Shown piece after piece: positions 14,953 to 62,629 of a DNA stretch of 64,000 nt (position 1 is the stretch's first letter; every line of letters starts with the position of its first letter). The notes beneath the pieces were generated by a model. That model was given only the letters and a program-made list of their open reading frames with translations. It was not told the DNA's origin and did no database searches. Source of the stretch: Clostridiaceae bacterium (GTDB lineage: Bacteria; Bacillota; Clostridia; Acetivibrionales; DUMB01); the NCBI GenBank assembly GCA_012840085.1, contig DUMB01000079.1:43140-107139 (forward strand), read 5' to 3'. Made by a program: the position numbers and the translations under genes.

Positions 14953-15004
14953 ATAAAGCAGAAACCAGGAATAAGAAATACCTGAAAACTGGATTCTGCC
15001 ATAT

Positions 15005-15080
<76 letters not shown>

Positions 15081-15113
15081 AAATAATATTAATTTAATAT
15101 TTAATTTTATTAT

Positions 15114-15198
15114 GGAGGGATTCCCGAGTGGCCAAAGGGGGCAGACTGTAAATCTGTTGGCACCGCCTTCGATGGTTCGAATCCATCTCCCTCCACCA
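15114..15198 (+). tRNA. tRNA-Tyr (GUA), long variable arm
   Basis: GGAGGGATTCCCGAGTGGCCAAAGGGGGCAGACTGTAAATCTGTTGGCACCGCCTTCGATGGTTCGAATCCATCTCCCTCCACCA. Confidence 0.92.
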
Positions 15199-17129: not shown

Positions 17130-17216
17130 GCGGATGTGGTGGAATTGGCAGACACGTTAGATTCAGGTTCTAATGGTCGCAAGGCCATGCAGGTTCAAGT
17201 CCTGTCATCCGCACCA
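17130..17216 (+). tRNA. tRNA-Leu (CAG)
   Basis: GCGGATGTGGTGGAATTGGCAGACACGTTAGATTCAGGTTCTAATGGTCGCAAGGCCATGCAGGTTCAAGTCCTGTCATCCGCACCA, with a long variable arm. Confidence 0.9.
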
Positions 17217-42129: not shown

Positions 42130-45100
42130 TTAATTTGCGGCATACTTATTGTATATCCTGTATAGTATTACCGCTGCTTCGGCGCGGGTAGTGAATGCTT
42201 TGGGATTCAATTTATCACCGGAGCCGGCTATCAGTCCTTCTTTGACCAGTGTAGCCGTGCTTCCTATTGCATATTCGGCGATATCTTCTTTGTCTATGAA
42301 TTTATTCAATGCGGTTGTATCTTTCGCAGCCTTGAGTCCTTTATATTTCTCCAAAGCCCTGGCTGTGAGCACCATCATATCCTGCCTGGAGATATACTCC
42401 ATCGGGTTAAAACGGTTATTTCCGACACCGGTGGTAATGCCCAGCTTTTTGGCGATACCAACTGCTTCATAATAGTAGGTACCCGGCCTCATATCATCAA
42501 AATTGCTGTCAAAGCTCGCAGTCAGCCCCAGGGTTTTAACAAGCAGTACCAGATAGTCTGCTCTGGTAATGTTTGAAACAGGAGAGTAGGTATCCTTTGA
42601 AGTTCCGTTGATGATACCTTTGGAAGCTAAAACCTCAACAGGTCTTCTTGCCCATTCCACACTGCCCAGGTCACTGAAGGTCTTATGCACATAAGCTACA
42701 GCATAATGACTGAAATGGGTTGTGGTAAATGTCACAGTTCCGGTTTCCGGGTCGTAGCGTCCGTTTGGTACTGAAATTATATTGCCGCTGCCGTCGATGT
42801 ACCAGATGACAATATGCTCCGGATCAGCCAGTTCCTCTGCTGTCGGTGTATAAGGTATGCTCACCGTAACCGGTGCGTCCGGATTATTCCATTCGATTTG
42901 CACACTGTCCAGGGTTAAGGTAAGTTGTACAATTGGCCTGTCTCCAATGGCTGCTTTTACATCCTCAGGCAGGCCGGATTTGTCGCCATGGCCTATGGTG
43001 ATGCTTGCTTTTTTCCCTTCTATTTCCGGCAATCCCGAAAGCATGTCTGACGGGATGGTGATACTACCCACATCGGTGGAGAAAGTCAGAGCGTCTTTCT
43101 GTTGTGAACCGGAAAGGAAATCTGCGGGAATTCCTAATGTGTAGGAGTTCACATCGGGAATGGAAGGTACTGTAAGAACAGTCATCCCGGTGCCGGTAAA
43201 GATATCATTTATCACGGTATCCTCCAATTCTACCGCTGCGTTTCCCATATCCGTATTCACAGTGACGGGCAGGGTGATTTCTGTTTTGTCGATGCCAGAA
43301 ACATTAGCGTTGTAAGTTGGTGTATCCTGAGTATAGTCGCTTTCGCCGATTATAATACCTCCGAAACCACCACCTGCTCCGCTGCCAGAATTGGAAACCT
43401 TCAAAGTTACCGTGTATGTGTCGGTGGAATCCTCTGTCCCATCATTTGCCTTAAATACCAGTGTAATTGTGCCTGTTACAGTCGGTGTATATGAATAACT
43501 TTCATTTGCATCGATATACTCAGCGCCGTTTATTGATACTCTATATGTCAGCTGGTCACCATCGGCATCTTCGAATATGGTCGACAGATCAAGGATATAT
43601 GCATTATTTACTGTCACTGCGACCGTCCTAGTTGCCGGTACGCCTGCTTTACGGTTCGGCGCTGTGTTCATCGGCGGTGCAGGATTTACTGTCAAGACAG
43701 CAGCTTCACTGGTTACACTACTAACTGCATTCGTTACCACTACAGTATAGCTTCCTGCATCCGATAGCTGGACAGTTTTAATAGTCAATGTATTCGAATT
43801 GACTCCACTAATGTTTTCCTTATTAGACAGTTCAATGCCGTTCTTCATCCACTTGTAGCTTAATGGCTCAGTGCCTGTAGCTTCTACTGTGAAAGTGACC
43901 GTATCCCCTTCAGTTACCGTCTGGCTTATGGGCTGAGTGGTTATAGACGGTGCTACAGGTGCTGGATTGACTATCAGGGTTACCGTGTATGTGTCAGTGG
44001 AGTCTTCTGTTCCGTCATTTGCCTTAAATACCAGTGTAATTGTGCCTGTTACAGTCGGTGTATATGAGTAATCTTTGCTTGCCGCAACATACTCGACACC
44101 GTTTATTGACACTTTATATGTCAGTTCGTCGCCGTCAGCATCCTCGAATATGGTCGACAGATCAAGGGTATATGCATTGTTCACTGCCACTGTAGCTGTC
44201 GCGGTTGCCGGTATGCCTGCTTTACGGTTCGGCGCAGTATTAACCGGCGGTGCAGGGTTTACCGTCAAGACAGCAGCTTCACTGGTTACACTACTAACTG
44301 CATTCGTTACCACTACAGTATAGCTTCCTGCATCCGATAGCTGGACAGTATTAATGATTAACGTATTCGTTTTAGCACCGCTGATGTTCTCATCGTCAAT
44401 CAGTTCTATACCATTCTTCATCCACTTGTAGCTTAATGGCTCAGTGCCTGTAGCTTCTACTGTGAAGGTGGCCGTATCCCCTTCAGTTACCGTCTGGCTT
44501 ATGGGCTGAGTTGTTATAGACGGTGCTACAGGTGCAGGATTTACCGTCAAAGTTACCGTGTATGTGTCAGTGGAGTCTTCCATTCCGTCATTGGCTTTGA
44601 ATATCAACGTAATTGTACCGGTTGAGGTTGGTGTATATGAGTAATCTTTGCTTGCCGCAACATACTCAGCACCGTTAACTGACACTTTATATGTCAGTTC
44701 GTCGCCGTCAGCATCCTCGAATATGGTCGACAGATCAAGGATATATGCATTGTTCACAGTAACACTTTCTGATGCAGTAGCCGGTATACCTGCTTTACGG
44801 TTCGGTGCAGTATTCACAGGTAGTACTGGATTTACCGTCAAGACAGCAGCTTTGCTGGTTACACTGGCAAGTTCATTTGTTACTGTTACAGTATAGCTTC
44901 CGGCATCTGACTCCCTTGCACTGATAATGGTCAATTCAGCCGTATCGCTTCCGTTAATGTTCTCATCATCATTTATTTCTGTGCCGTCTTTCATCCACTT
45001 GTAACTTAATGGCTCAGCACCTGTCGCTTCTACTTTAAAGGTGACAGACTGTCCCGCAGATACAGTCCGGCTGACCGGATGCATGGTGATGAACACCGGC

Positions 45101-48100
45101 AACTGACCAGGTGATGTTACAAAATTAACCACATATGTCTTTGTTGTTTTAAGATCCCAGGAAGTAACTGTCAAAGTTGTGCTACCAGGAATCTCCTCAG
45201 CATCGAAATATGAAACATCTGCATATTCGTCATTGGCTTCCCCATAAACCCATGTTGGGCTATCATATGGTGATGTGCCTTCTGGAACCAACACATAATA
45301 TTCATATATTTCAGTGTCAAAACCCTGTAATGGTGTATATTCATATATTCCCCAATCGAATCCAACATAAAGGCTCTTCAATGTGGCATCATATGCTTTA
45401 TTGCCATCAATGCCTCTTACTTCCAGCCATCTCCCAATCCCTACATTAAATCCAATCCAGAAATAATATGAATCATATTCTGTAAGTCCTTCATAGAGAT
45501 CAGCCTTTATGGTAAGAACATCATCCTCCACAGTGTAGTCAATACCCTGAATTAAGGTGCTGGACTTCCATTCAAATTCTTCATTGTCGAAGTATTCCAT
45601 TTCAATAGTTGTAACCTCAGTTGCATCATTCCATGTAATGTGAACGTTGATGTCGGAAGGGGGAGCATTTATGTCGATAATCTTTATTTCAGGGTCCAGT
45701 TCCGCATCGATGCTGTCAACATATACATAGAAATATGTCTGGCAGCCTTTATAACTTACAGTAATTGTTTTACTGCCTTCACTGCTGCTGTCAAAGCCTG
45801 TTATTTCAAGTTCCTCGATGGGGATCTCCCGTTTGCTGCCGTTTGAATATATGGCATTTACCACCAAACCTGTCAAATCAAGCTCTTCTCCAAGGTAATA
45901 TTCATCCTTGTAAGGACACTGCGACACCTCTAATCCGGCCACTCCCAAGACCAACACTTCGAAGGCTGAGGATAGTGTTACACCCCCATAAGTTATACCA
46001 ATATCCTGCTTTCCAGGCACATCGATGTTAAATCCGAATATATCAGCTTCGCTTATGTCACTTAATACTATTTCCTGATTATCAGTAGTAATGCCTTTCA
46101 CAACAAGACCTGTCAGGTCAATGTTATCTCCTAGATAATATATATACTTGGTTGGTGGTACTGCAACAACTAAACTCTTCAATCTTACAATGAACGGAGC
46201 CGGATCGGAGGTATCCGATGCTACGTGGTACATATCATTTTCATAAGGTACAGCTGTTACTGTGACATAGTAGGTGGTACCGTTTCTAACATCGGTTACC
46301 GGTAACGGAGGCAAGTTAAATGAAGTTCCATCAGTGGCCTGTTTGGTGTAAGTGGTCGGTTCACCTCCTGCTGAACCATCAGGAGTGATGGTAATGATAT
46401 AACTTCCTGCATTAGGCACCGGATCCCAGTGCAATACATCCAAAGAAATTCTAACGTTTCCGGGAACCGGCAGCTTTTCTGTCTTTTTCACCTTGAACGA
46501 ATTATAACTCTGAAGCCAGTTCTGGTATCCCAAAAAATCCATTGTGGTATAAACGGTATACTCCCCTAAAACAGCATCCGTAACGGTCAGATAAAGTTCA
46601 GCTATATTATCGGTTACAGTTGCGGTTACAAGAGTTCCTTCCACTATCTCACCGGTGCTATTGTCCTGCAGTCTGGAGGTTATTACTGTTCCATCATCTA
46701 CATTTTTTGTAACAACAGTAACTTTTATTGTGGCATCCATTCCTTCGGGTATATCTTCCGGATAAATGGTCACCGACTTGAATTCCGGTCTTTCCTTTAT
46801 TGTTATTACTTTGCTGCCGCTTATTCCTGAACCGTCATCGGCTGTTGCTATTACAGTTACAGTTCCGGCTCCTGTGCATATCAGATATCCGTACTGGTCA
46901 ATGGTTGCGCTTCCCGTACCCGGTTCTACTGTCCAAATAATCGGCACATCACCGGCGTTTGCCGGGATGATTTGCAAATGCATCTGTATGATACTACCAA
47001 CTATTAATGTATCAACATCTTCCCAACCTGCTTTCACTATAATACTTTCAATGGGTGGACTTCCTGTTATAAAACTCACATCTGTCCTGGGTATTAAGTT
47101 TTTATTCGCGTCACCTACCGGCTTGATACTAAAAGAATATGCCAAGTAGGGATTCAAACCGCCTGTAGGTGTTATGGTAAGCACCTTTTTGTCCTGACTC
47201 AGTGAGGCGGTAATTTCCACTATATCCATAGATGTCCGCAGTTCAACCAAAGATGCAGGATCAATGATTTCCTTTACATTCAGGCCGTCACGGTAATATT
47301 TCAATGGTTCATCATAGGTAACTGTCAAATTCTTGAGTATAGAGAAATTTTTCTCGCCATCCGCCGGACTTGTGGACAGTATTATAGGAGGTGCAAAATC
47401 TTTGACACCAAATTTTTGCAGGTAAGGATAAGTACCTTCGCTGATAGCCCATACACTTTCAAAGTCCCATCCGGCGTTTACAAATTCATCCGCTGACTTC
47501 ATTTCAAGAGTGGTTAGGGGCGTACCGTAGAATACACTATTATCAAAAGTATATAAAGAACTGTTATAGAAGGAATTACTGACAGCAATACCGGCTGATT
47601 CATTGTTTCCAATCAATCCTCCTATCAGTGATCTTCTCTCATTGTTTACATTTATTTCTACTGATGCAAAGGAATTGGTTATTTCAGCGCTACCGTCAAT
47701 AAAGCCCACCAAACCGCCGCAGCCCACCGGATCAGGCGAGAAAGAGTTTCCGCCTATCAGCAGTCCGGCAGAATAGCAGTTTACAATGCTTACTTCCTGA
47801 TCACTTCCAAACAGCTGACCTATTAATCCGCCTGTATTTTTATAACCTCTCACATCAACATTTGTATAAGATTCAGATATTGAGGAATTTATCAGCATTC
47901 CGGTAATACCGCCGACATTTTCATTACCCCAGGCACTTCCTTCAAAAGAAGATTCTGATATATCAGAATAAGAAACACCGAATATGCCTCCTACATTTAT
48001 GCCTCCTATAGCGTATGCTGCTGATACTTGGCCAGTCACATGGATACTGGTCCTGATTCCGTTCCCCAGATCTGTTCCTGCAAGAGCTCCAACGTTGTGA

Positions 48101-51100
48101 CGGCCTCCAACATCCACATTGGTCAGACTGATATTCTTGATTGTTCCACTTGAGATGAAGCCAAACAAGCCTACGTTATCAGTCGTAAGCCGCTCTATAT
48201 GCAAGCCGCTTATAAAATGCCCGTTACCGTCAAGAGTTCCTGTAAAAGGATTACTGGCGTCACCGATAGGCATCCAGCCTAATGAGCCATATCCTGTATC
48301 ATAAGAGCTCAGATCAATGTCAGCTTTCAGCCTGTAATGGGCGCCAAGATCATTTCTTATGGCGTCAAGCTGGGCGGCATTGCTGATGAGATAAGGATCA
48401 TTTTCACTACCTGTGCCTCCGTCGAAAGTTGTTTTATTTTCTACCTCAATCTCGCTGAAAGCAATGAATATGCCTCCGTCCATTGTTCTTAAATCTCCTG
48501 GTGTATAGCTTACGGTGACTATATCGGAACTGGCAAGAACAGGACCCTCCAGCTCAAAAATGATCTGTTTTTTATTAGCCCCCAGCAATGCAGCCCTGAT
48601 GCTTCTTTCAGTTCCATTGACAAAGGCCTTGAACTGTGCCTGTTTTCCGGCAACATCAGACAATGGCTTTTCAAATGTCAGGATAATCGTTCTTCCTTTG
48701 GTGTCGGTCTCAGCTGCCAAAGGCGGCGCTTCAACTGTCCTGAAGCTTAATGTAAAGGACAGTGAACGCATATCCGGATCTTCTGCATCAGCAGCAACAC
48801 CTTCAGGCAGCGTAACAGTATATAATTTCCCATAGCGAAGGCCTTCTGCCGGAATAATTGTTAGTGTCATTCCGTCTGATGACAAGCTGTAAGTGCTTTC
48901 AATGACTGAACCGTTTTCTTTTACATTTATACCTGATGCAGCATCAGTAAGATGCACGCTTTTGTTGAAAACTAAGGTTATGGAGCTTTCAGGATTTACA
49001 TCATTTCTGTTTTTCACAGGGTTTGATGAAGCCACACCTACTCTGTCTGTTACAATTACATCGATTGTTTTTATTGCAATATTACCTCTGCTGTCCTCGG
49101 CAACACAAGTCACTTTTGTGGTCCCCAGAGGAAACTTTGACCCTGATTCAAAAGTAACCAGCACTTCCACAGGTCCATCCACCGCATCATATGCGCTGAA
49201 TCCTTCAAAATATGCAGTTCCTTCTTTACCCGATTCATCCACAGGCACTAAGATTTCTGACGGTCCGGTAATAACAGGCGGCGTAGTGTCCTGTACAATT
49301 ACCTTGAAGCTTCCTGTGGCTGTGTTCCCGGATTTATCTGTGGCGGTAACAGTCACAATGGTTTCACCAATTGGGAATAACGAACCTGCATAAGGTTCGC
49401 AGTACACCGGCACATATCCGTCCACTTCATCATAAGCCTTGACCCAAAAGGTAACATAGGCTCCCTCTGCCGAAGTTGCCTCCACTGTTATATCTTCCAA
49501 TGCAATATTAGGAGGAGTTGTATCCGGCGGCCCCATTCTGGTGGCAAATATGTACATCACCCTGGTGGTACGGTTATCTTCTGCGGTGACAAGTATTTTT
49601 ATGTCGTTGCTTCCCTCCTCAAGAGCTATCTCCATAGGTTCACCGTTTTCATAGGGGATACCGTTGATGGCCACCCTTGCACCTGCACCTCCCGCATCGG
49701 ATGTCACACTGGGCATTGCCACAAGAGTTACACTTTCAGTATCATTGCTGAAATACATATTATAGCTGAATACACCTTTTATATTCGGTACTTCCACGCC
49801 ATTTAATGTTAACAGGCTCAAAGTGGCATCGCTGGACGGCATTCTGTTAAGAATGATGGTATAATTCTGTTTCAGTTTGCCGTCTTCCGAGATCATAGTG
49901 ATATCAATAATATTTTCTCCCACCTTAAGAGGGAATGCGCCTGTATAACCGTTTACTGTCAAACTTTCACCGCCTGATCTAAAGTTTATAACGGCACTTG
50001 CACTCGTCTCAGGGGTAATGGTTACAGTGATTTCATCGACGTCATTTTTTATATCAAAAGTATGCTTACGTTTTGATGTGTTCAGCATCCTGGAGGCAAA
50101 TGATCCGTCAGAAGACAATACAATGCTTTTAGCCTCAGGATTCCGTTCAGGCAAATACTCACGTTTCACTATTACGGTGTAAATCTTGTTACTGCCGTCC
50201 AGATTGCCCACCACCATGTCAATCAGGTTCATGCCCTGTTCAAGGTAAACAGTAACAGGATCTCTGACGATTTTTCCATCCCTGAAATCAGGAAATTGCG
50301 TCACCTTGTCATTTATTGTAACGTACCCGCCGTTGTTCCCATTCCAGCCAAGCACATTCAGATATTCAGTACCGGTCGGTACTGTCAGCTCGTATTCTGT
50401 AATATTCCTGTCAAAAGAAGGCTTAAGCTGCAGTTGTTGTCCGCTGCTGTCTGTAATTTCAAGGCGTGGGTAATCAGACAAATTATGACCTTTTCCATTT
50501 AATATAAGCAGGTACAGGGCTTTTTTCCCACCCTCGGTAGTAACTTCGATAGGTACAGTATAACTCTGGCCTACATAAAGGGGTTGCTTTGAGTATAAAT
50601 TCCAAACGGTATTATAATCTTTCCCTGTTAAGCCGAAATTTTCACTTGCAGAACCCAAAATCTCCATTGAAGCCACTCTTCCGGTCTTGATAGCAGCGTC
50701 TACAAAGGCGTTTATTACCCCCTCGGGGAAATTAAAGAAATAAACTCCCTCACCAGGATTCTCAAGCTCCCCTGCATTTCCTTCTTCATAGGTATCATAG
50801 TCTATGTAGTCGAGTGACAGGGATATGAATTCAGGATTATCTGTATAGTCGGGAATCTCCCTGTAAATTTTTATGTGGTAAAGTTCAATATGTACACCGT
50901 CAGGTGCTCTGGTTTTAATCATGAAAGTATTTTCGCCCGGTGAAAGACGTATCTTATATGTATAAATCGGGCTTTCTTCTCCGTCAACAGAGTCAGGTTT
51001 CATCTGTATATCACCAAAATACCAGCGCCATACGGTTGTATCATTTTCCTCTGTACTGAAGCGGATTACAACAGACTCGACTTCCGATCCTACATTGACA

Positions 51101-54021
51101 ATCTGTTCAAATGTAGATCTGCTTAGGTCATACTCGAAAGGTTCTTCTCCGTCCGCGCCTCCGCCTTTTGAAACTGTAAGATAGCTTAGTTTGGCATTGC
51201 TTGAAAAAGCTCTGAATACCTCAAGACGATAGGTTCTCACTGTATCCGCCCCGGGTTCACGCACATCCTCGGCGCTTAAGGATATATCGACATAATTATT
51301 GCCGGGCGTCAGGTACATTCTGTAAGCGTTGTTATGATCCCATTCCATGCCGTTTACTTTCAGCTTAGCGCCTTTAGCATCCTCTTTTGTCATGCGTATA
51401 TCTAAAAACTCGGTATATTCTCCCACGTTAAGAGAGTAAAAGGTCATATAGGGATCAAAATTTCCCTGCATTATGTCCACTTTTCCGTCTTTACCGCGGT
51501 CCTCCCACAGTTCCAGTCTCTCAAGCCTGTCGGAGTGTTCCATTTGCACATTTACCGTATATTGCCTTGTTGCTTTTTTGTTTCCTGACTGAACAAATAT
51601 CTTAAATTGCTTTTTGACACTTGTGTCTGCAATAAAATAATCTTCGTTAGGATCATATTCCTGCTTGCTGTTTTTGTCCTCCTGGACATGGATTGATTGA
51701 CCCGGATGGGCTTTGGCAAGGTTTAAATAGAAGATCTGACCAAATCGGTTATAGGGTATCCACACATTATACACCGTGTTGCCCTGGCCAAATTCCGGAG
51801 TCATCTCAAAAGGAACACCATTCGGAGGTACTACAGCAAGAGTTATGAGGGATGTATTGCTGGAATCGTAATTCCAATAGAGCTGTGGAGGAGGACCAGT
51901 TACTTCATTAAACTCCAGGCTCAGAAGGTTTTGATTTATTGTTATTCCACCTTCAGCACCTACTTCTACGGCTTCTCCAAGGCTCAATCCTACGCCTGCA
52001 CCCGCATTAACGGTAGCTTTAAAACCTGCACTGCCATCAATATCGGGGTCATCAAGGCCTATCAAAAAGAGGAGCATTTCCACATTTGTCTGAGCAGATA
52101 TGTCGATTCCGGCGCTCAGGCTGATTTTGGCTTCAGCACCCAGATCGGCATTAGCACCTGCCCCTATGCTGATGCCGAAGGTTGAGTTCCGTAACCCGGT
52201 AAGGGCTTCAGAACCTAACACCTGCAGTTCATTCCACATAGTTTCTATAGGCTCAAGTTTGCCTTGATATGCTGCTTCTGTCATATAATTGAGAATTGTT
52301 TCAGGAGCAAGAAGCAGCGCCCGCAAAAACGGTTTTACCGGAAACTCCGCCGAAAACTGTATCGGAGGAGCAAGAGTGGTGGAAAGGCTCAGGCTGGCAT
52401 CCTCCAGCATGTTGTTGACTAAACTTTCATCGACTTGAAGAGGATTCACACCTTGAGGTATCCAGCCTTCAAGGCCTGTATACTGTAAAAGGCCTGCAAG
52501 AGTTGCAGAAACGGCCTGTAATGACTCTGCGATAAAATCCGGGGTATCCTGTATTGAGGCTTCAGGAATTGATAAGGTTGCACTGAGAAGATTTACTGTA
52601 TCAGTGTCTTCTGAATCGGATGAGTCACTTTCTCCTGCCAGATCCAGTGAGGCTGAAATTTCTATTCCTACAGCTTCTTCGCCCAGTGATTCGAAAAAGC
52701 TGTTGGTAAAATCTCTGCAGCCTCCATTATTCCATACATCTACTAAGCCTCCATAATTTAACCTGCTGTTGAGCCATCCGTCCACAAGTCTTTTCATGTC
52801 ATTGGCCATTTCCGGAGCAAATTCTACAAGGTCCACCAGCATATCCTTGGTAATTTTTGAAAGTGCTCCGGAGGTCAGAGAATATGACATATCTGCGCTT
52901 GCGCTGACTCCGGCCCATTTTGTATCAAGAGCACCTAAGCCTACATCTCCGGACAATCCGAAGCTCAGCTCTATTTCGCCCAATGCCTCTCTGTCTCTCT
53001 GACTGAACCCGTACAGGCAGCTAATGGCGCTGTACAGGAGGGTTGCTGCATCATCAGTCGCCTCTTCTGGTGTAGGATTTCTGTATTTGTACTTTTGAGA
53101 AATTGATTGGGCTGACTTTGCCAGATTACTGGTCATGAGCTTAAGAAGCTTACCCGCCACTGCCTGGGATACCTCGACGGAAAGTGACGCCTTTGCTTCT
53201 CCTTCCAATGAAACCCCTGCGTCCACAGTAGCTTTCAGACTGATTTCAAACTCAAGTTCAACTGAAGTTTCATCCATTGCGCCAATCTTAACCTGGACAT
53301 ATTTATTATCGTAGTATGGTAGATATTCCTCGGCTTTAAAGACCGGTAAACCTCCTATAAGAGGAATTCTGAGATGAACGTAGGATTTGCCGTTGCGGGT
53401 TATATCCAGAAAGGCGTAGGGTATATACATTTCATTTTCAAAGTGCTGGGCGTTTCCTCTGCCAAGAGGATTGTCATTTCCAAAGCCCACCACTGCCTGG
53501 CTTCCACCGGGGCCATCCAAACGTATGCAAGCTGAAACATAACCCATATCTGTCTTTTCAGCCCATGCCCTAACCTCCAGTATATCAGTGCCGTTGACCT
53601 TCAGTTTTGGAAGATCCACCTCTACGCTGAAGTTGAAAGGTACAGCCCTCAGCATTGACACTCCTATGTTGCCGGTGGCTGAAAGGTCCTGCAAAATTTT
53701 CATTATCTCCGATATTTCTTCAGTAGTTTCTCCGCCGGCTACGGCCACATTTCCGCCTGTCACGCTCTGAAAAGCCTTTTGGAGCGCCTCCAGCCGGCCT
53801 TCGCCCATGAATGATGATAACTTGTCCGCCGCGCTTTTAAGCCCTGTCTCTTCAAGGACATCGTTCAAAATGCCATCCAGCGGCGAAGCGTGAACTTGCG
53901 CCGGTGCAAAAGGCCCGCCTATTATGTCTCCCAGTATGGCAGTAATCAGCGCCATGGAAATTATCATCGTTACGGATATAAGCGGTTTTAACAACCTTCT
54001 TCTTTTACAGTTGTTTTTCAT
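42130..54021 (-). CDS. Giant (3963 aa) mosaic cell-surface protein with C-terminal SLH anchor
   Basis: Single uninterrupted ORF with the SD GGGGG. In order it contains:
- An N-terminal signal/TM segment.
- ~650 aa that I cannot assign.
- Many cadherin-like beta-sandwich-type modules (e.g. NITEYELTVPTGTEYLNV).
- Two HYR-like modules (DTTPPNIALEDITVEATSAEGA..., DTTPPVITGPSEI...).
- A GLUG/beta-helix-like region (DPYLISNAAQLDAIRND...NVGLFG...).
- Big_2-like and Ig-like modules.
- Three copies of an I-set-like Ig plus cadherin-like unit.
- A Gly-rich linker.
- Three SLH repeats at the C-terminus. Confidence 0.9.
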   Translation of the reverse strand: MKNNCKRRRLLKPLISVTMIISMALITAILGDIIGGPFAPAQVHASPLDGILNDVLEETGLKSAADKLSSFMGEGRLEALQKAFQSVTGGNVAVAGGETTEEISEIMKILQDLSATGNIGVSMLRAVPFNFSVEVDLPKLKVNGTDILEVRAWAEKTDMGYVSACIRLDGPGGSQAVVGFGNDNPLGRGNAQHFENEMYIPYAFLDITRNGKSYVHLRIPLIGGLPVFKAEEYLPYYDNKYVQVKIGAMDETSVELEFEISLKATVDAGVSLEGEAKASLSVEVSQAVAGKLLKLMTSNLAKSAQSISQKYKYRNPTPEEATDDAATLLYSAISCLYGFSQRDREALGEIELSFGLSGDVGLGALDTKWAGVSASADMSYSLTSGALSKITKDMLVDLVEFAPEMANDMKRLVDGWLNSRLNYGGLVDVWNNGGCRDFTNSFFESLGEEAVGIEISASLDLAGESDSSDSEDTDTVNLLSATLSIPEASIQDTPDFIAESLQAVSATLAGLLQYTGLEGWIPQGVNPLQVDESLVNNMLEDASLSLSTTLAPPIQFSAEFPVKPFLRALLLAPETILNYMTEAAYQGKLEPIETMWNELQVLGSEALTGLRNSTFGISIGAGANADLGAEAKISLSAGIDISAQTNVEMLLFLIGLDDPDIDGSAGFKATVNAGAGVGLSLGEAVEVGAEGGITINQNLLSLEFNEVTGPPPQLYWNYDSSNTSLITLAVVPPNGVPFEMTPEFGQGNTVYNVWIPYNRFGQIFYLNLAKAHPGQSIHVQEDKNSKQEYDPNEDYFIADTSVKKQFKIFVQSGNKKATRQYTVNVQMEHSDRLERLELWEDRGKDGKVDIMQGNFDPYMTFYSLNVGEYTEFLDIRMTKEDAKGAKLKVNGMEWDHNNAYRMYLTPGNNYVDISLSAEDVREPGADTVRTYRLEVFRAFSSNAKLSYLTVSKGGGADGEEPFEYDLSRSTFEQIVNVGSEVESVVIRFSTEENDTTVWRWYFGDIQMKPDSVDGEESPIYTYKIRLSPGENTFMIKTRAPDGVHIELYHIKIYREIPDYTDNPEFISLSLDYIDYDTYEEGNAGELENPGEGVYFFNFPEGVINAFVDAAIKTGRVASMEILGSASENFGLTGKDYNTVWNLYSKQPLYVGQSYTVPIEVTTEGGKKALYLLILNGKGHNLSDYPRLEITDSSGQQLQLKPSFDRNITEYELTVPTGTEYLNVLGWNGNNGGYVTINDKVTQFPDFRDGKIVRDPVTVYLEQGMNLIDMVVGNLDGSNKIYTVIVKREYLPERNPEAKSIVLSSDGSFASRMLNTSKRKHTFDIKNDVDEITVTITPETSASAVINFRSGGESLTVNGYTGAFPLKVGENIIDITMISEDGKLKQNYTIILNRMPSSDATLSLLTLNGVEVPNIKGVFSYNMYFSNDTESVTLVAMPSVTSDAGGAGARVAINGIPYENGEPMEIALEEGSNDIKILVTAEDNRTTRVMYIFATRMGPPDTTPPNIALEDITVEATSAEGAYVTFWVKAYDEVDGYVPVYCEPYAGSLFPIGETIVTVTATDKSGNTATGSFKVIVQDTTPPVITGPSEILVPVDESGKEGTAYFEGFSAYDAVDGPVEVLVTFESGSKFPLGTTKVTCVAEDSRGNIAIKTIDVIVTDRVGVASSNPVKNRNDVNPESSITLVFNKSVHLTDAASGINVKENGSVIESTYSLSSDGMTLTIIPAEGLRYGKLYTVTLPEGVAADAEDPDMRSLSFTLSFRTVEAPPLAAETDTKGRTIILTFEKPLSDVAGKQAQFKAFVNGTERSIRAALLGANKKQIIFELEGPVLASSDIVTVSYTPGDLRTMDGGIFIAFSEIEVENKTTFDGGTGSENDPYLISNAAQLDAIRNDLGAHYRLKADIDLSSYDTGYGSLGWMPIGDASNPFTGTLDGNGHFISGLHIERLTTDNVGLFGFISSGTIKNISLTNVDVGGRHNVGALAGTDLGNGIRTSIHVTGQVSAAYAIGGINVGGIFGVSYSDISESSFEGSAWGNENVGGITGMLINSSISESYTNVDVRGYKNTGGLIGQLFGSDQEVSIVNCYSAGLLIGGNSFSPDPVGCGGLVGFIDGSAEITNSFASVEINVNNERRSLIGGLIGNNESAGIAVSNSFYNSSLYTFDNSVFYGTPLTTLEMKSADEFVNAGWDFESVWAISEGTYPYLQKFGVKDFAPPIILSTSPADGEKNFSILKNLTVTYDEPLKYYRDGLNVKEIIDPASLVELRTSMDIVEITASLSQDKKVLTITPTGGLNPYLAYSFSIKPVGDANKNLIPRTDVSFITGSPPIESIIVKAGWEDVDTLIVGSIIQMHLQIIPANAGDVPIIWTVEPGTGSATIDQYGYLICTGAGTVTVIATADDGSGISGSKVITIKERPEFKSVTIYPEDIPEGMDATIKVTVVTKNVDDGTVITSRLQDNSTGEIVEGTLVTATVTDNIAELYLTVTDAVLGEYTVYTTMDFLGYQNWLQSYNSFKVKKTEKLPVPGNVRISLDVLHWDPVPNAGSYIITITPDGSAGGEPTTYTKQATDGTSFNLPPLPVTDVRNGTTYYVTVTAVPYENDMYHVASDTSDPAPFIVRLKSLVVAVPPTKYIYYLGDNIDLTGLVVKGITTDNQEIVLSDISEADIFGFNIDVPGKQDIGITYGGVTLSSAFEVLVLGVAGLEVSQCPYKDEYYLGEELDLTGLVVNAIYSNGSKREIPIEELEITGFDSSSEGSKTITVSYKGCQTYFYVYVDSIDAELDPEIKIIDINAPPSDINVHITWNDATEVTTIEMEYFDNEEFEWKSSTLIQGIDYTVEDDVLTIKADLYEGLTEYDSYYFWIGFNVGIGRWLEVRGIDGNKAYDATLKSLYVGFDWGIYEYTPLQGFDTEIYEYYVLVPEGTSPYDSPTWVYGEANDEYADVSYFDAEEIPGSTTLTVTSWDLKTTKTYVVNFVTSPGQLPVFITMHPVSRTVSAGQSVTFKVEATGAEPLSYKWMKDGTEINDDENINGSDTAELTIISARESDAGSYTVTVTNELASVTSKAAVLTVNPVLPVNTAPNRKAGIPATASESVTVNNAYILDLSTIFEDADGDELTYKVSVNGAEYVAASKDYSYTPTSTGTITLIFKANDGMEDSTDTYTVTLTVNPAPVAPSITTQPISQTVTEGDTATFTVEATGTEPLSYKWMKNGIELIDDENISGAKTNTLIINTVQLSDAGSYTVVVTNAVSSVTSEAAVLTVNPAPPVNTAPNRKAGIPATATATVAVNNAYTLDLSTIFEDADGDELTYKVSINGVEYVAASKDYSYTPTVTGTITLVFKANDGTEDSTDTYTVTLIVNPAPVAPSITTQPISQTVTEGDTVTFTVEATGTEPLSYKWMKNGIELSNKENISGVNSNTLTIKTVQLSDAGSYTVVVTNAVSSVTSEAAVLTVNPAPPMNTAPNRKAGVPATRTVAVTVNNAYILDLSTIFEDADGDQLTYRVSINGAEYIDANESYSYTPTVTGTITLVFKANDGTEDSTDTYTVTLKVSNSGSGAGGGFGGIIIGESDYTQDTPTYNANVSGIDKTEITLPVTVNTDMGNAAVELEDTVINDIFTGTGMTVLTVPSIPDVNSYTLGIPADFLSGSQQKDALTFSTDVGSITIPSDMLSGLPEIEGKKASITIGHGDKSGLPEDVKAAIGDRPIVQLTLTLDSVQIEWNNPDAPVTVSIPYTPTAEELADPEHIVIWYIDGSGNIISVPNGRYDPETGTVTFTTTHFSHYAVAYVHKTFSDLGSVEWARRPVEVLASKGIINGTSKDTYSPVSNITRADYLVLLVKTLGLTASFDSNFDDMRPGTYYYEAVGIAKKLGITTGVGNNRFNPMEYISRQDMMVLTARALEKYKGLKAAKDTTALNKFIDKEDIAEYAIGSTATLVKEGLIAGSGDKLNPKAFTTRAEAAVILYRIYNKYAAN
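43395..45113. repeat. Intragenic 3 x 573-bp tandem repeat (191-aa Ig plus cadherin-like unit)
   Basis: The anchor GTTACCGTGTATGTGTC recurs at 43406, 43979 and 44552, exactly 573 bp apart. An 86-nt stretch is identical between 43691-43776 and 44264-44349. Confidence 0.9.
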
Positions 54022-54110: not shown

Positions 54111-54148
54111 ATTATAAAAAATGGACTACCACCAAAAGTGCCACCAAA
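54111..54148 (-). promoter_or_regulatory. Candidate activator-dependent promoter of the giant gene
   Basis: On the minus strand TTTGGTGG occurs twice (54148-54141, 54136-54129) with a 12-bp period. TATAAT (54116-54111) lies 12 nt downstream. The -35 position reads ACTTTT, a poor match. Confidence 0.35.
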
Positions 54149-54189
54149 TTAAAATTTTTTTCAAAAAATTCCACACCTGAAAAAGGAAA

Positions 54190-54222
54190 CAAAAAACGCA
54201 GGATGTTGAGTTATCCTGCGCT
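54190..54222 (-). terminator. Rho-independent terminator of the STAND/SARP regulator gene
   Basis: On the minus strand GCGCAGGAT aactcaac ATCCTGCG is followed by TTTTTTG. Confidence 0.75.
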
Positions 54223-54272
54223 TTTCAAAAGTTATCCTACACTTTTCAAGTCATCGTCCCTGTTTTCTGCAG

Positions 54273-57200
54273 CTATTTATTCTTTTTCCTTTTGCCTTCC
54301 TTTGAAGCATCAATGCGATGTCCATGGTGGTTCAAGCTAACACAGCGGCGCAATAGCTCCACGATTTTGGCCTGTTCACCGGATTCCCGATAGTTTTCCA
54401 GTAAAGTTTCCGCCGCCTGAAGAAAGCTATTCTCACATAGTAATCTGGAGCTTTCAGCCCAGAGAGCCTCCATATCATCCAGATAGCGGCCGGTGTAATG
54501 GTCAACAACCCTTTGGGCATTTTCATGGACAGGTTTTTTTCGGAAGTCCTCAACTACTTGCCGGAAATTATCATAGTCGCAGATGATTTCCTCCATGTTC
54601 AGCTTATACACATCCTTTTCCCGAAGGATTGGGTTCTTAGCCCCAAGGCTTTCAAAAGCCCTGCGTATTTCACCCCTGCGCGTATGGAACAAACGGGTGA
54701 CGTCAGCCTCACTGTCTCCCCACAGATCAGCGTAAATTCGCTGCCGGCTGACACCCTCCCGATGCTCAAGCAGGTAGGCCAATAGCTCCCTGGATTTCTG
54801 TGTGCGGATTTTGACGCGAAAGTGCCTGTCATGAGCCGGGGCTATATAAAAAGTTCCCAGAGTGTTTATATATACCTTCTGGGCAGCATAACCGCTGTAA
54901 GCCAGCATTTCACGGGTAAACTCAGGAGTAATGCCGCGGCTTTGGGCAAATTTCAGCACTTCCCCAAACACGGATTTTATCTGAAAATAGTAGCGGTGGC
55001 CATATTCCATGGACATGGTAAGGCATCTTCGGGCACATTCCTCCGCTTTGGTTTCATTCTTTTCACGCAGGTAAATAGCGGCTAACCCTCCGTAAGCGAT
55101 CATAGGGGCAACCAAGGTCCCGGCTGCTTCCCCGGTTTCAATGCACTTTCTGTAAAAGGCTTTGCTCTGTTCCATATCCTGTTCCAGCGTATGGAAAGCA
55201 TTGGCCAATCGTCCGAAGGCCAGTGCCCGGAAATATGGAGTGGCATGTTCGACCAGTTCAAGAATATCCTTAACCCAATACAGCGCTTTTTCAGACCTGG
55301 CCAAAAGCTCTGCGTCCATGTGCAGTATTTTTATAAAGAGCATGTAATTACCGGAATTACGTTTTAAGTCAACGTGTTCCTCTGCCAGCTCCAGATACTT
55401 GTTGAATTCTGATAAATCCACCAAGCCTCCCTGGATACTTTTCCGCATTTCCTCGGCCAGCAGGATTTCAGCATACATCAGGTAGTTAAGACTCATCTCC
55501 TCATGGAGCCCAAGACGGCGGAGACGGGAAAGTTCAGCTTCCATAAGGGAGACAGCCTTTTCTTCCTGTCCTGTAACCTGGTATGCTTTGGCGGCATATG
55601 CACCCACGCTATGGCGTGCGAGCCAGTCTTGCTCTTCTTCGGGCAGAGACAGGGATTTTTCGTAGTAATGAAGACACTTTTTGTAATTGCCTTGATAAAA
55701 ATAAATGACAGTCAGATATCGTTCAAACCACGCCCTGACCCTTGCGTTGCCGTAAGCAGCGCACTTTTTCACCATTGAAAGGGTCAGTTCCAAAGCGTCG
55801 CACAGACGGGTTGACAGTGTCAGGTTGTGAATTTTTTCAATAATCAGCAGGTACCAGTCTTCGGGGGGAGCGTCATCCGGCAATGGCAGCATACTGTCGA
55901 TCAGACGGTTGCTTTCCTCATAGGAGGCTTTGTTGCGCAGAATTCTGGCTTTATGCGCCATAACCTGCAGCAGAACCCTGCTGTCACCACTTAGCTTGGG
56001 AAGTGCTTCATTCAAGCACTGTTCGGCCTCATAAAAACGTCCCTGACTGGACAGATATAATCCTCTTGCTAATAATACCTCAGGGGAAAGATGAGTGCGC
56101 TGGGCTTCCATGCAATCGAAATACCCTTTGAGATTGCCATAGTGTCCCTTGCCGAAGGGCCTGCCCAACTCTGCCTTAATGCAATCGTGGATAAAAGCTC
56201 CGTCTCCGATTAGAAGGGCATAATCGGCAGCCCGTTCGTATTCACCGCGGGCAAAGCAATCGGACATGGCCCTGCGCAAGACTTCCAGTCCCAGTCCGTT
56301 GTCGTTTTGCCGTAAAAAAGAAGCGAACAGGGTATGGTAGCGGTAAACTGTGGAAACCTGGACAGTAAAAATATTCCTATGTACAAGCCAATCCAGTATT
56401 TCTCGTGTGTTTTTAATACCCAAAAGCCTGTTGCACTCATTGGGGTTAAGCTCAGGAAACCACGCGGTTGCAAGAAGGAAATGCCGTGTTTCTTCAGGTA
56501 GCTGATTAAAAATCTCATTCATTAAATAGTGGTTAAGGTTACGATCATTATGGGGCAGACGAATCTTTCCCGCTTCTGAGGCCATGCGGTAGGATTGCAG
56601 AGCTAAAGCCCAGCCCTCTGTGGCCTGATATACGGCTTCGTCGAAAAATCCCCAAAGCTCTTCAGCTTCCTCCCGGCTGAAGCGCAGGTCAGCTTTTGTA
56701 AGCTCGGCGACACGACCGTCCATCTTGAGCCGGAAAAGGCTGCTCCGCAGCTCATGGCGTCCTGCCATGACAAGGGTTAGGTTCTGAGGGCAGCTTTTTG
56801 CCAGCCTGGTCAGGAAGTCCATCACTGCTCCGTCAGAAATAACGTGCACATCGTCCAGGATAAGAATGAGCTTGCGGTGTCCCAATGCCTTTAAGAGTGA
56901 TGTCAATGCTAAGGAGACAAAGGTATTATCTGCGGCGAATGGCAGGAGGTCTGTGACGTAAAAATCAAAACGAGGCAGTTTCTTTCGGAAGGCGTTCTCC
57001 AAATGTCGCAAGAAATTCATCAGGTCGCTGTCCCGCTCGTCAAGGGAGAGCCAGATAACATTATTGCGTCCTGTGGTGTACTGCATCAGGAGAGTGGTTT
57101 TACCATAGCCTGCATCGGCATGGATGTATGTAAGGCTGCTGCCGGGTGGAGCAATTTTTTCTATCAGGCGGGGGCGAAAGACAACAGCGCGTGGAGGGCT

Positions 57201-57473
57201 GGGCCTGAGTAAAGTGTATTCCTCTGTCTCAGGTTGTACCATGTGAACTAGCTCATCAGCCTCTGCTACAACAGCTGACGGATACGGATTTCTTTTGATG
57301 TACCGGCCAGATTTAATACGTTCATCAGCCGGCTTTTCAGCCGATTCAGGGATTAGCCATACCCTGCTGTGGCGCACCGCTCCCTCAACCCTGCCCTCAC
57401 TGCAGAGCGTGTGTACCCTGCGTTGGGATATACCCCATTTCTCAGCGGCCTCTTTCGGCGATATATACTTCAT
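54273..57473 (-). CDS. Large STAND-type regulator: N-terminal HTH, P-loop NTPase, TPR-like repeats, C-terminal SARP winged helix plus BTAD
   Basis: - N-terminal HTH: ISPKEAAEKWGISQRRVHTLCSEGRVEGA...WLIP.
- Walker A DAGYGKTT and Walker B LILILDDVH.
- A long helical repeat region.
- C-terminal INTLGTFYI...KSRELLAYLLEHREGVSRQRIYADLWGD (OmpR/SARP wHTH), then ICDYDNF...HYTGRYLDDMEALWAESSR (BTAD-like). Confidence 0.8.
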   Translation of the reverse strand: MKYISPKEAAEKWGISQRRVHTLCSEGRVEGAVRHSRVWLIPESAEKPADERIKSGRYIKRNPYPSAVVAEADELVHMVQPETEEYTLLRPSPPRAVVFRPRLIEKIAPPGSSLTYIHADAGYGKTTLLMQYTTGRNNVIWLSLDERDSDLMNFLRHLENAFRKKLPRFDFYVTDLLPFAADNTFVSLALTSLLKALGHRKLILILDDVHVISDGAVMDFLTRLAKSCPQNLTLVMAGRHELRSSLFRLKMDGRVAELTKADLRFSREEAEELWGFFDEAVYQATEGWALALQSYRMASEAGKIRLPHNDRNLNHYLMNEIFNQLPEETRHFLLATAWFPELNPNECNRLLGIKNTREILDWLVHRNIFTVQVSTVYRYHTLFASFLRQNDNGLGLEVLRRAMSDCFARGEYERAADYALLIGDGAFIHDCIKAELGRPFGKGHYGNLKGYFDCMEAQRTHLSPEVLLARGLYLSSQGRFYEAEQCLNEALPKLSGDSRVLLQVMAHKARILRNKASYEESNRLIDSMLPLPDDAPPEDWYLLIIEKIHNLTLSTRLCDALELTLSMVKKCAAYGNARVRAWFERYLTVIYFYQGNYKKCLHYYEKSLSLPEEEQDWLARHSVGAYAAKAYQVTGQEEKAVSLMEAELSRLRRLGLHEEMSLNYLMYAEILLAEEMRKSIQGGLVDLSEFNKYLELAEEHVDLKRNSGNYMLFIKILHMDAELLARSEKALYWVKDILELVEHATPYFRALAFGRLANAFHTLEQDMEQSKAFYRKCIETGEAAGTLVAPMIAYGGLAAIYLREKNETKAEECARRCLTMSMEYGHRYYFQIKSVFGEVLKFAQSRGITPEFTREMLAYSGYAAQKVYINTLGTFYIAPAHDRHFRVKIRTQKSRELLAYLLEHREGVSRQRIYADLWGDSEADVTRLFHTRRGEIRRAFESLGAKNPILREKDVYKLNMEEIICDYDNFRQVVEDFRKKPVHENAQRVVDHYTGRYLDDMEALWAESSRLLCENSFLQAAETLLENYRESGEQAKIVELLRRCVSLNHHGHRIDASKEGKRKKNK

Positions 57474-57688
57474 TTAATATTGCCCCCCTTTACAGCTCTA
57501 AATCTGTTTCTCTAGATCTGTTTTTTTTATTATATTCGATTAATCGAACAATATCAATGAAGTACCAGTTTAAGAAAAATTGTTAAATGAAATGTGAGCT
57601 CACTTTACGTGAGCCCATCGCACTTTACAAAATCTGTATCCCAAATAACAACCGAAATAAAGCAATGTTCTTGACAGTCCATGGTCCG

Positions 57689-58393
57689 CTAGTCCGCCGT
57701 CAACACAATTTTGCCGCCAAAGTTGCTTAAAGTAAACAGTTCTGAGTCATGCAGCCATTCATATGAAACATTGTATTCAAATGGGAAAACCTGGGGTATT
57801 GAAGACAACTCTGCAATTTCATAGTAAGCTTTTTCTTTTAAATTAAGTATGGCCAGTAACAGCACCTGTATGGTTTTAGCATCCGTAACCGGGTACTTTT
57901 TTATGCGATATACCCCAATCTTTACATTTTCGATGGCCCCAATCTGTTTCAATGTCTGTAATATCTTATCGCTGGAATGGTACAAAGTGGTCCCTTCTCC
58001 CCACATTTCGAACAACTTTTCCTTGAGCCAGGAAGCCGCAAAAGTATCCTGAATTTTAGTAAGCTTGCCTATTAAAGCACATACATCACAGAATATGGGG
58101 TAAGCAAGCAGCATCATGCTCCAATGCAATGCCAGTTTATTCGACTTATCATCTTTATATGCTTCTAAAGCTTGCTGTTTTAAAGCTGAAAGCTCATCAG
58201 GAATTCTAACCCATATATTCATGAGGATTTCCCTTGTCTTTCTTACGTTAACAGGGCTTTTTATTTCAAATGACAAGTATTCGGTTAACTCATCTTTAAT
58301 TTGGGTTTCGTTCTTGCCCTGTAATAAAAGGTCTACAGTCTTATTGAGCCATTCCGGTTTAATGGAACGGGACAGTCCAATCATCTTTGCCAT
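57689..58393 (-). CDS. brxA: BrxA-like protein (DUF1819-like), last gene of a type 3 BREX-like locus
   Basis: 234-aa helical protein directly after pglZ, matching the position and size of BrxA in type 3 BREX. Sequence resemblance is judged by eye only. Confidence 0.5.
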   Translation of the reverse strand: MAKMIGLSRSIKPEWLNKTVDLLLQGKNETQIKDELTEYLSFEIKSPVNVRKTREILMNIWVRIPDELSALKQQALEAYKDDKSNKLALHWSMMLLAYPIFCDVCALIGKLTKIQDTFAASWLKEKLFEMWGEGTTLYHSSDKILQTLKQIGAIENVKIGVYRIKKYPVTDAKTIQVLLLAILNLKEKAYYEIAELSSIPQVFPFEYNVSYEWLHDSELFTLSNFGGKIVLTAD

Positions 58394-58396
58394 CTA

Positions 58397-58501
58397 TATT
58401 ACCGCCTTTACTAATTATGTATTAATATCTGTATTACCGTCTTTACTGATTATGTATTAATATCTGTATTATCGCCTTTACTAATTCTATATAACCGCTT
58501 T
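58397..58501. repeat. 35-bp tandem repeat (about 3 units) in the pglZ-brxA spacer
   Basis: TATTACCG/TATTATCG unit starts fall at 58397, 58432 and 58467. A fourth partial core lies inside the pglZ 3' end (58487-58507). Confidence 0.85.
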
Positions 58502-59938: not shown

Positions 59939-59942
59939 AATT

Positions 59943-62612: not shown

Positions 62613-62629
62613 ACTTGCACACTCTCACC

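Follow-up and report, generated by a model that had tools for sequence, protein, structure and literature searches.

The minus strand of the 64,000-nucleotide stretch analysed here (the window) carries, at positions 54273..57473, an open reading frame (ORF) whose translation is a 1066-aa protein composed of a helix-turn-helix (HTH), a MalT-like STAND NTPase, a TPR sensor and a C-terminal winged helix-turn-helix (wHTH) followed by a short BTAD. This protein, hereafter the regulator, is encoded between two very different neighbours. Downstream, the minus-strand gene at 42130..54021 codes for a giant surface protein of 3963 aa with a signal-peptide-like N-terminus, in which Pfam recognizes Ig/I-set, cadherin-like, Big_3/Big_5 and HYR domains and three SLH domains, while upstream are found the genes for BrxA, PglZ, BrxHI and PglXI of a BREX locus. 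Anaerobic Firmicutes commonly possess giant SLH-anchored surface proteins, whose regulation is unstudied in the literature searched. A protein 100% identical to the regulator (P0001), annotated as 'AAA family ATPase', is known from a Clostridiaceae metagenome-assembled genome (MAG) on a biogas fermenter contig.

Domains and predicted structure of the regulator

All coordinates given for the domains refer to the minus strand. The N-terminal domain (aa 1-45; 57339..57473) resembles the HTH of excisionases and MerR-like proteins, since HTH_17 matches aa 3-44 (E 4e-5, under the gathering score of Pfam), HTH_59 is matched as well and the first 60 residues match the PHROG excisionase family phrog_2655 (E 2e-9); a sequence search of the same 60 aa against the PDB returned zero matches. 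In the full-length AlphaFold2 model, built on 34 homologues with a mean pLDDT of 83.9, aa 1-45 form a strand-helix-helix-hairpin fold (pLDDT 83-89), followed by a disordered linker (aa ~57-88, pLDDT <50). This domain is missing in the Desulfitobacterium and Natronincola homologues as well as in a clade of ~35% identity.

The central part of the protein is a MalT-type nucleotide-binding oligomerisation module (aa ~96-392; 56298..57188) made of a P-loop NTPase, a helical and a winged-helix domain. Pfam places AAA_22 at aa 113-244, with AAA_16 also matched, and PF25873 (WHD_MalT) is a precomputed match on the exact regulator protein. The NCBIfam MalT profile aligns aa 88-527 to its positions 7-477 (E 4e-47) at a score of 160.8, far under the equivalog cut-off of 537. 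Walker A, GYGKTT (aa 122-127, within DAGYGKTTLL), and Walker B, LILDDVH (aa 204-210, within LILILDDVH), are read directly in the translation, and the conserved sensor arginine of STAND NTPases is present as R239; in the alignment of the 34 homologues, G122, G124, K125, T126, D207, D208 and R239 are invariant. A Pfam scan of the regulator gave neither an NB-ARC match nor a GerE match, the C-terminus folding as wHTH and BTAD. The module is followed by a TPR-like helical sensor of ~470 aa (aa ~393-860; 54894..56297), with TPR_1/2/8/12/14 matches at aa 464-820 and an all-helical AlphaFold2 model over aa 394-860, which resembles domain III of MalT (1hz4, TMt 0.71) and the peptide receptors Rap and NprR (TMt 0.60-0.67).

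Regarding the C-terminal output (54330..54893), it consists of an OmpR-type winged helix (aa 861-965) and a short BTAD (aa 966-1048), and in both cases the Pfam matches are below gathering: Trans_reg_C at aa 891-944 (E 1.8e-3), weak alone, and BTAD at aa 967-1047 (E 0.017), covering positions 3-91 of the 146 of the profile. With ~85 aa compared to 146 in the Pfam model, this BTAD is ~60 residues shorter than usual. A PDB profile search of the C-terminal region returned DNA-binding domains of the OmpR/PhoB type (E 6.6e-5). A separate model of aa 858-1066 (me99f2ed6aab9; pLDDT 87.3, pTM 0.81) gave six PDB matches at E <= 1e-3, all of them SARP domains, namely AfsR in transcription complexes (8hvr, 8k60) and EmbR (2ff4, 2fez). 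AfsR superimposes with a TMq of 0.65-0.67 and an rmsd of 3.5-4.1 Å over ~198 columns, and only the AfsR and EmbR matches cover the whole module (~198-237 aligned columns), those ranking below being isolated OmpR/PhoB DNA-binding domains. Because the sole strong matches of the model are the SARP domains of AfsR and EmbR, the presence of a C-terminal wHTH and BTAD is confirmed. In the rest of the full-length model, an alpha/beta NTPase is followed by helical and winged-helix domains up to aa ~392, and the output is resolved as a winged helix (aa 867-965) and four helices (aa 966-1046). The best PDB fold match of this model is MalT (8bob_C, E 7e-14, 26% identity), next to the Pyrococcus STAND-TPR protein 6mfv and to Avs3 (8dgc).

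The gene also departs from its surroundings in composition, with a GC content of 0.494 compared to a window mean of 0.40 and a third-codon-position GC (GC3) of 0.528, the highest of the 22 larger ORFs tabulated (0.31-0.48 for the remaining ones), which is compatible with horizontal acquisition. A previous sequence-only reading of this DNA had named the domains, both Walker motifs and both neighbours, and all of these are borne out by the profiles, the structural models, the translation and the gene map; its suggestion of a different origin, drawn from hand counts of G+C (30/60, 30/60 and 24/60, all exact on recount), agrees with the GC and GC3 now computed. Across the window, most genes have a GC3 of 0.31-0.41, BrxHI (0.46) and PglXI (0.48) are also raised, and brxA, pglZ and the giant gene are closer to the background; in composition, the block at 42-64 kb resembles a mosaic.

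A predicted operator in the giant-gene promoter

Between the stop codon of the regulator gene and the start of the giant gene, the minus strand displays successively a terminator, an A/T-rich tract, a repeated box, 12 nt, a TATAAT and the ATG. The intrinsic terminator of the regulator gene (54190..54227, found by a terminator scan) is a hairpin, CGCAGGAT...ATCCTGCG, followed by a T-run. The A/T-rich tract AATTTTTTGAAAAAAATTTTAAT (54148..54170) lies just upstream of the box and might act as an UP element. The box itself, TTGGTGG-CACTT-TTGGTGG (54129..54147), which we predict to be an operator on the basis of its conservation, is made of two direct heptamers (54147-54141 and 54135-54129) with a 12-bp period, and the -10 hexamer TATAAT (54111..54116) begins 12 nt after the 3' heptamer and is followed 89 nt later by the ATG. 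No TTGACA-like -35 is present at 16-18 nt from this -10, and the promoter is absent from the list returned by a sigma-70 promoter scan.

To follow this arrangement in relatives, we rely on homologue loci, labelled L001 and onwards, which fall into a first tier of at least 49% identity and a second tier of ~33-36% identity. The first comprises ~50 full-length homologues at 49-85% identity from Clostridia, Peptococcaceae, Desulfitobacterium, Natronincola and Sporomusa, the best family match among the GTDB representatives scanned being 70% identical, while proteins of the second are ~960 aa long and devoid of the N-terminal HTH. Over 1.6 Mb of loci, the consensus tTGGTGGCA(C/G)TTTTGGTGGTAG-N9-TATAAT is found as one copy beside every regulator of at least 49% identity, always aimed at the adjacent surface-protein gene or ECF-sigma (extracytoplasmic function sigma factor) operon, be it downstream or divergent. 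In the window, the box occurs as a single perfect copy, 0.42 matches with up to two mismatches being expected by chance. Stacking 25 distinct sequences reveals hardly any variation in the box, in a T-tract and in the -10, against flanks with little or no information; box and -10 are 12 nt apart in all but L012 (11 nt; 24/25), and none of the 25 promoters has a -35 hexamer at any allowed spacing. Equivalent terminator hairpins with a T-run are found in L005, L009, L016, L001 and L034, and similar A/T-rich tracts upstream of the box in L005, L009, L011, L034, L023 and L122.

The genes facing the box are diverse. They include 13 distinct secreted or surface-protein genes, mutually non-orthologous, together with seven ECF-sigma operons, one Nif11 peptide gene and one MFS-like gene. 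Downstream of the regulator are thus encountered, among others, a >3393-aa cadherin-like/Big_3/SLH gene (L009/L010, 72% identity), a 1128-aa Calx-beta/Big_2/Cu_amine_oxidN1 protein (L001-4, 70%), a 1385-aa SLH/GLUG protein (L011, 70%) and, in Natronincola, a 1450-aa SLH/CBM_X2 protein (L016, 55%), and in divergent orientation genes of 1579 aa (L012, 57%) and 870 aa (L018, 59%). The giant proteins of the window and of L009 are only 24% identical, compared to 72% for their regulators. Linkage to large genes extends to the second tier, where 8 of the 15 loci with drawn ORF maps have a divergent gene of 977-2968 aa beside the regulator; the four submitted to Pfam encode SLH, LRR or Flg_new domains. 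Judged from these comparisons, regulator, box and promoter seem to behave together as a portable cassette, the same box standing before unrelated surface proteins or before an ECF-sigma/Nif11 cluster.

Some features of these loci are worth recording in their own right. A small HTH_36 protein precedes the regulator in L009 (6290-7594; 96 aa) and L034 (9458-9658); in L009/L010 it is accompanied upstream by smpB, which the HTH_36 gene of L009 follows, a classic island-insertion neighbourhood that hints that the pair of regulator and giant gene travels in variable regions. In the second tier, the direct-repeat promoter is separated from the large surface-protein gene by a conserved small Cys-rich ORF of 58-101 aa (L024 7594-7815 on the minus strand, L026 9547-9780, L027 9523-9810, L031 9536-9841, L032 4175-4408, L038 9562-9861 and L028 2779-2955); it carries the motifs CGV.E..FPC.G.CC ... 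CP.C ... IFEC, belongs to no Pfam family, and the window does not contain it.

A reverse test, in which metagenomes were scanned with a DNA pattern for the box alone, gave 125 matches, of which 12 had the -10 context, and 10 of these 12 adjoin a regulator homologue of 54-73% identity. The two remaining copies stand ahead of genes for an Ig/Big_2/Flg_new (plus SLH) protein and for a signal-peptide protein. The other matches are mostly due to chance or to coding tandem repeats (TGGTGGTAGTTT arrays). Such 12-nt tandem arrays, which mimic the box, were observed in L091, L092, L103, L108 and many marine and soil contigs; they are apparently coding or of low complexity, and unrelated to the regulator.

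The box could be read by another factor, such as an alternative sigma factor or the N-terminal HTH, with the regulator acting elsewhere or on itself only. Direct binding of the regulator to the box is indeed a prediction, the protein possesses a second DNA-binding domain, and two box copies have no adjacent regulator. Against this, box and regulator are associated one-to-one across Clostridia, Peptococcaceae and Negativicutes, and the box changes with the regulator clade, its geometry being kept while the heptamer differs. Indeed, the recognition segment is almost unchanged in the first tier ('LFHTRRGEIR', FHTRRGE(I/V/D)(R/K)) and reads 'NLIAVNL..LK' in the second, whose divergent intergenic regions contain TGTT(C/A)A(C/G)-GGTTT-TGTT(A/C)A(T/C) with a TATAAT ~12-13 nt after. 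Moreover, homologues without the N-terminal HTH (Desulfitobacterium, Natronincola and the second tier) keep their box, so that the box belongs to the C-terminal module, and tandem direct repeats suit a wHTH and not a sigma factor; the -10 is sigma-A-like. We therefore consider it very unlikely that a factor other than the C-terminal output of the regulator reads the box.

Published SARP sites are direct heptameric repeats replacing or overlapping the -35 (PMC10936776; PMC10972967), with a period of 11 or 22 bp and the 3' 11-bp repeat located 8 bp from the -10 (PMC10936776). Given units of 11 bp and a gap of 8 bp, the end of the heptamer is therefore 12 nt from the -10, as at the box, and the SARP promoter geometry is apparently kept with a C-terminal output. 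Taken together, these data lead us to propose, with a probability of about 0.7, that the regulator is a MalT-type STAND activator with a SARP-type output, which would switch on the giant gene through the predicted heptamer operator, the adjacency to BREX being incidental. The sequence-only reading had likewise seen in it a signal-integrating activator of the giant gene, and this idea gains support from the linkage to surface-protein genes down to ~33% identity, from the conserved box and from the co-variation of box and clade. By analogy with MalT and AfsR, binding of a ligand to the TPR sensor, together with ATP at the Walker A and B motifs, would release autoinhibition and drive oligomerisation. 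Two C-terminal SARP modules could then be positioned head-to-tail on the direct heptamers TTGGTGG-N5-TTGGTGG (54147-54129), which by sequence and by comparison occupy the place of the missing -35, 12 nt upstream of TATAAT, and would recruit sigma-A RNA polymerase (RNAP) for transcription of the gene encoding the 3963-aa SLH-anchored protein.

Several points weigh against this proposal. The box repeats every 12 bp, whereas SARP sites have a period of 11 or 22 bp; the shortened, sub-threshold BTAD (~85 aa) might contact RNAP otherwise than AfsR does; a weak alternative, TTTATA-18-TAGAAT, is offered by the promoter scan and would put the box further upstream; and that the regulator binds the box, that it activates instead of repressing, its ligand and its oligomeric state are so far inferred. 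Repression, in particular, deserves consideration. If the regulator bound the box as a repressor or anti-activator, it would occlude the giant-gene promoter until a signal removes it, which is compatible with a box located inside the core promoter directly upstream of the -10 and with a short BTAD that might fail to contact RNAP. However, since none of the 25 sequences has a -35 hexamer at an allowed spacing, the target promoter would be expected to need a factor for its activity. Upon activation, proteins of the MalT type form multimers that bind DNA, which also argues against repression. Finally, every characterised wHTH-BTAD protein at this position is an activator (PMC10936776; PMC10972967), and we hence regard a repressor as unlikely.

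Three further candidate elements around the giant-gene promoter have been discarded. Relatives do not share the alternative TTTATA-18-TAGAAT promoter (54118-54089). A direct repeat TTGAAAAG(T/C)G(T/C)AGGATAAC of 19 nt with a 21-nt period (54249-54231 and 54228-54210, minus strand) follows the regulator stop; as an operator it was rejected because it is not conserved in L005 and its second copy is the 5' arm of the terminator. For a riboswitch or other RNA element in the leader of the giant gene (e.g., responding to c-di-GMP), Rfam searches at gathering and at E<=1 gave nothing credible.

The regulator gene has its own promoter, TTGATA-17-TATAAT (57529..57557, minus strand; 11/12 in the promoter scan), whose spacer contains a palindrome, TTCGATTAATCGAA (57548-57535, minus strand), as a candidate autoregulatory operator. 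The whole 29-nt promoter, TTGATATTGTTCGAAGTTTnGCnTATAAT, is kept in ~18 loci whose regulators bear the N-terminal HTH and is missing at the Desulfitobacterium loci, whose proteins are devoid of it. This distribution weakly suggests that the excisionase-like HTH binds the palindromic spacer and so might autoregulate the gene, which is the most speculative step of the proposed mechanism; Natronincola (L016), which retains the promoter though its HTH is deleted to a remnant, is the one exception. The leader of the gene also contains, between the -10 and the ribosome-binding site, a direct repeat ACAGATCTAGAG / ACAGATTTAGAG with a 14-nt period (57521-57496, minus strand), and the longer leader of L005 has several AAACA(G/A)-type repeats.

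A subclade of homologues at 50-58% identity (Formimonas, Sporomusa, Desulfitobacterium and MAGs) is located beside an ECF sigma factor, a ~125-aa protein, Nif11 leader peptides, a radical-SAM enzyme and a C39-peptidase ABC exporter. There, the TTGGTGG box is aimed at the ECF sigma operon (L006 8061-9682, L007 8330-9697, L008 13055-15852, L015, L017 and L022), and in L014 it stands directly ahead of a Nif11-type peptide gene; the whole looks like a cluster for a ribosomally synthesized and posttranslationally modified peptide (RiPP) under a regulator-to-sigma cascade. These loci allow a broader and rather tentative reading, to which we assign a low probability, in which the family would be a new class of STAND receptors for secreted-peptide or surface-derived signals, forming portable cassettes of sensor and promoter before interchangeable cargo. 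It is conceivable because the TPR sensor resembles Rap and NprR as well as MalT domain III, because neighbours in the subclade encode Nif11 leaders, radical-SAM enzymes and C39 exporters, and because the cargo is swapped while regulator and box are conserved. If so, the ligand in the RiPP-linked subclade would be the exported peptide of the cluster itself, leading to autoinduction, and in the window a signal would control the display of the 3963-aa protein in a variable island by BREX, which could be a response to phages or to the state of the community.

Relation to MalT, SARP and other regulators

The sequence-only reading had described the domain order as unusual. This is correct with respect to characterised actinomycete SARPs, whose domains are described in the literature only at the N-terminus (PMC10972967; PMC10936776), and does not hold otherwise: the order is the normal MalT plan, with NTPase, sensor and C-terminal DNA-binding domain, in which a SARP module replaces the LuxR HTH, and it is frequent in other phyla. 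Indeed, a profile of the SARP module searched against 1.84 billion representatives retrieved 12,031 proteins at E <= 1e-3, of which 1,519 reach E <= 1e-10. In the top 150 module matches, the module hardly ever occupies the N-terminus; it comes after a receiver domain (proteins of ~365 aa) or a STAND-TPR region (~1100 aa), and also a P-loop ATPase (one ~600-aa protein checked) or a kinase-AAA-GAF region. A true SARP-LAL, P0111, is present among the matches, with an N-terminal BTAD at 94-239 and the C-terminal GerE HTH kept. Distant homologues from Chloroflexota and other lineages (P0065, P0071, P0073, P0067, P0150, P0164 and P0173) combine AAA and TPR_MalT with Trans_reg_C and a BTAD of full length; their SARP module occupies ~residues 820-1090, in proteins that, P0067 left aside, measure ~1050-1130 aa. 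The architecture is thus common in databases but uncharacterised, our literature searches having returned nothing on a C-terminal SARP/BTAD arrangement or on the regulator family.

With MalT, the regulator shares the order of modules: P-loop NTPase, helical domain, winged helix, TPR-like sensor and C-terminal DNA-binding output. It differs by this output, which is an OmpR-type wHTH with BTAD where MalT has a LuxR/GerE HTH, by the extra N-terminal excisionase-like HTH and by its predicted operator, a direct heptamer pair replacing the -35, whereas the MalT operator is an array of MalT boxes. With AfsR and the other 'large' SARPs of Streptomyces, as with EmbR of M. tuberculosis, it shares the wHTH-BTAD fold, and as in AfsR-type 'large' SARPs this fold is joined to a STAND NTPase and a TPR region. 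In these proteins, however, the SARP module is N-terminal and the NTPase is of the NB-ARC type, whereas in the regulator the module is C-terminal (aa 861-1048 of 1066) and the NTPase MalT-type; compared to AfsR and EmbR, its BTAD is ~60 aa shorter and its host belongs to the class Clostridia and not to the actinomycetes. The targets diverge as well, an antibiotic cluster for AfsR-type SARPs and, by prediction, a surface-protein gene here, although the members of the sister subclade flank Nif11/radical-SAM peptide clusters.

SARP-LALs (PimR, FilR, SanG) come close, being built from a SARP module, an ATPase of the MalT/LAL type and a TPR region, but they carry the module at the N-terminus (PMC10972967). 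The uncharacterised Chloroflexota-type AAA-TPR_MalT-Trans_reg_C-BTAD proteins have the same architecture while being only 23-26% identical overall, and differ by a full-length BTAD over the Pfam threshold and by the lack of the N-terminal HTH. REC-wHTH-BTAD proteins possess a related module, likewise not N-terminal. In the STAND activator GutR from Bacillus subtilis, an HTH at the N-terminus is followed by the NTPase and a TPR region, but a C-terminal SARP module is lacking; its likeness to the regulator, which has this module in addition, is a lead only. By the position of its module and the type of its NTPase, the regulator thus falls outside the SARP family as currently defined, and by the absence of the LuxR HTH it falls outside the MalT/LAL family. 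The most fitting description is that of a STAND activator of the MalT clade whose output is of the SARP type, from an uncharacterised family, which would work like both MalT and SARPs.

These comparisons show that the SARP wHTH-BTAD output, N-terminal in the textbook actinomycete proteins, is in other phyla widely used at the C-terminus of MalT-like STAND proteins. While the architecture itself is common, the pairing of regulator, operator and giant surface-protein gene is specific and new relative to the literature searched, and an uncharacterised family is now associated with a precise, testable predicted operator and a defined target promoter.

The BREX neighbourhood and minor features

The BREX locus of the window (57689-63979, minus strand) is type-3-like, with PglXI, BrxHI, PglZ and BrxA, and has a counterpart in L005 (1-9685). 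In both, PglZ is limited to 483 aa, which align with no more than the second half of the PADLOC profile (641 positions); BrxHI, the helicase, has 889 aa in the window, whereas the calls of 70 and 447 aa in L005 suggest a truncation or disruption there.

In view of this proximity, and of the STAND and TPR domains, the sequence-only reading had also raised a role in defence. The regulator could be an antiviral, Avs-like STAND sensor or an accessory or regulator of BREX, sensing phage proteins through its TPR domain and acting on DNA or on BREX expression. Its gene is indeed located 215 bp downstream of brxA, an arrangement kept in L005, and has an atypical GC3 (0.528) as is common in islands, while Avs3 (8dgc) is among the STAND fold matches. 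Comparative data nevertheless point elsewhere. In a tblastn search of the four BREX proteins of the window against 89 loci, the BREX locus adjoins a homologue only in L005 (85% identity), with one weak helicase match elsewhere (L014), and no BREX was found at any of the loci examined of <=72% identity. The association with neighbours that the earlier reading had advised to survey in relatives holds for large surface-protein genes and, beyond L005, not for BREX.

PADLOC matched no defence STAND model on the regulator itself, returning solely a generic TPR model (E 8e-6), and on 102 neighbour ORFs from 29 non-redundant loci it gave only sporadic defence matches, consisting of a HEC-01 pair, a helicase, and kinase and radical-SAM matches of a generic kind. 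The HEC-01 candidate pair, an AAA_15/AAA_21 ATPase and a DUF4276 protein (A, E 2.5e-182; B, E 3e-77), precedes the regulator homologue of Desulfitobacterium hafniense DP7 (L008 7998-9811) and is the only clear defence neighbour in the 29 other loci; although it could be taken in favour of a defence role, ~3 of 30 family loci with defence matches fall far short of the published criterion of P<=1e-4, set against a background defence rate of 0.0153 per gene (PMC13581612). Furthermore, according to Pfam and to the structure, the regulator has no nuclease, protease or other effector domain, both terminal domains being DNA-binding. A terminator-like hairpin after brxA (57595..57617, minus strand; same hairpin sequence in L005) and the promoter of the regulator gene insulate this gene from brxA; with its own promoter and its own terminator it is a transcription unit of its own, and no box was seen in the BREX part of the window. 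After these analyses of the protein, the 89 loci and the 102 neighbours, a BREX or defence role was rejected: the adjacency to BREX appears incidental, and a function in defence, already largely refuted by the comparison of loci, is in our view highly improbable. A single adjacency is hence a poor guide to defence function, this STAND-TPR gene abutting BREX being read as a housekeeping-type transcription factor.

Unrelated to the regulator, an Rfam scan at gathering located four tRNA genes in two groups on the plus strand of the window (14876-15195 and 17130-17213).

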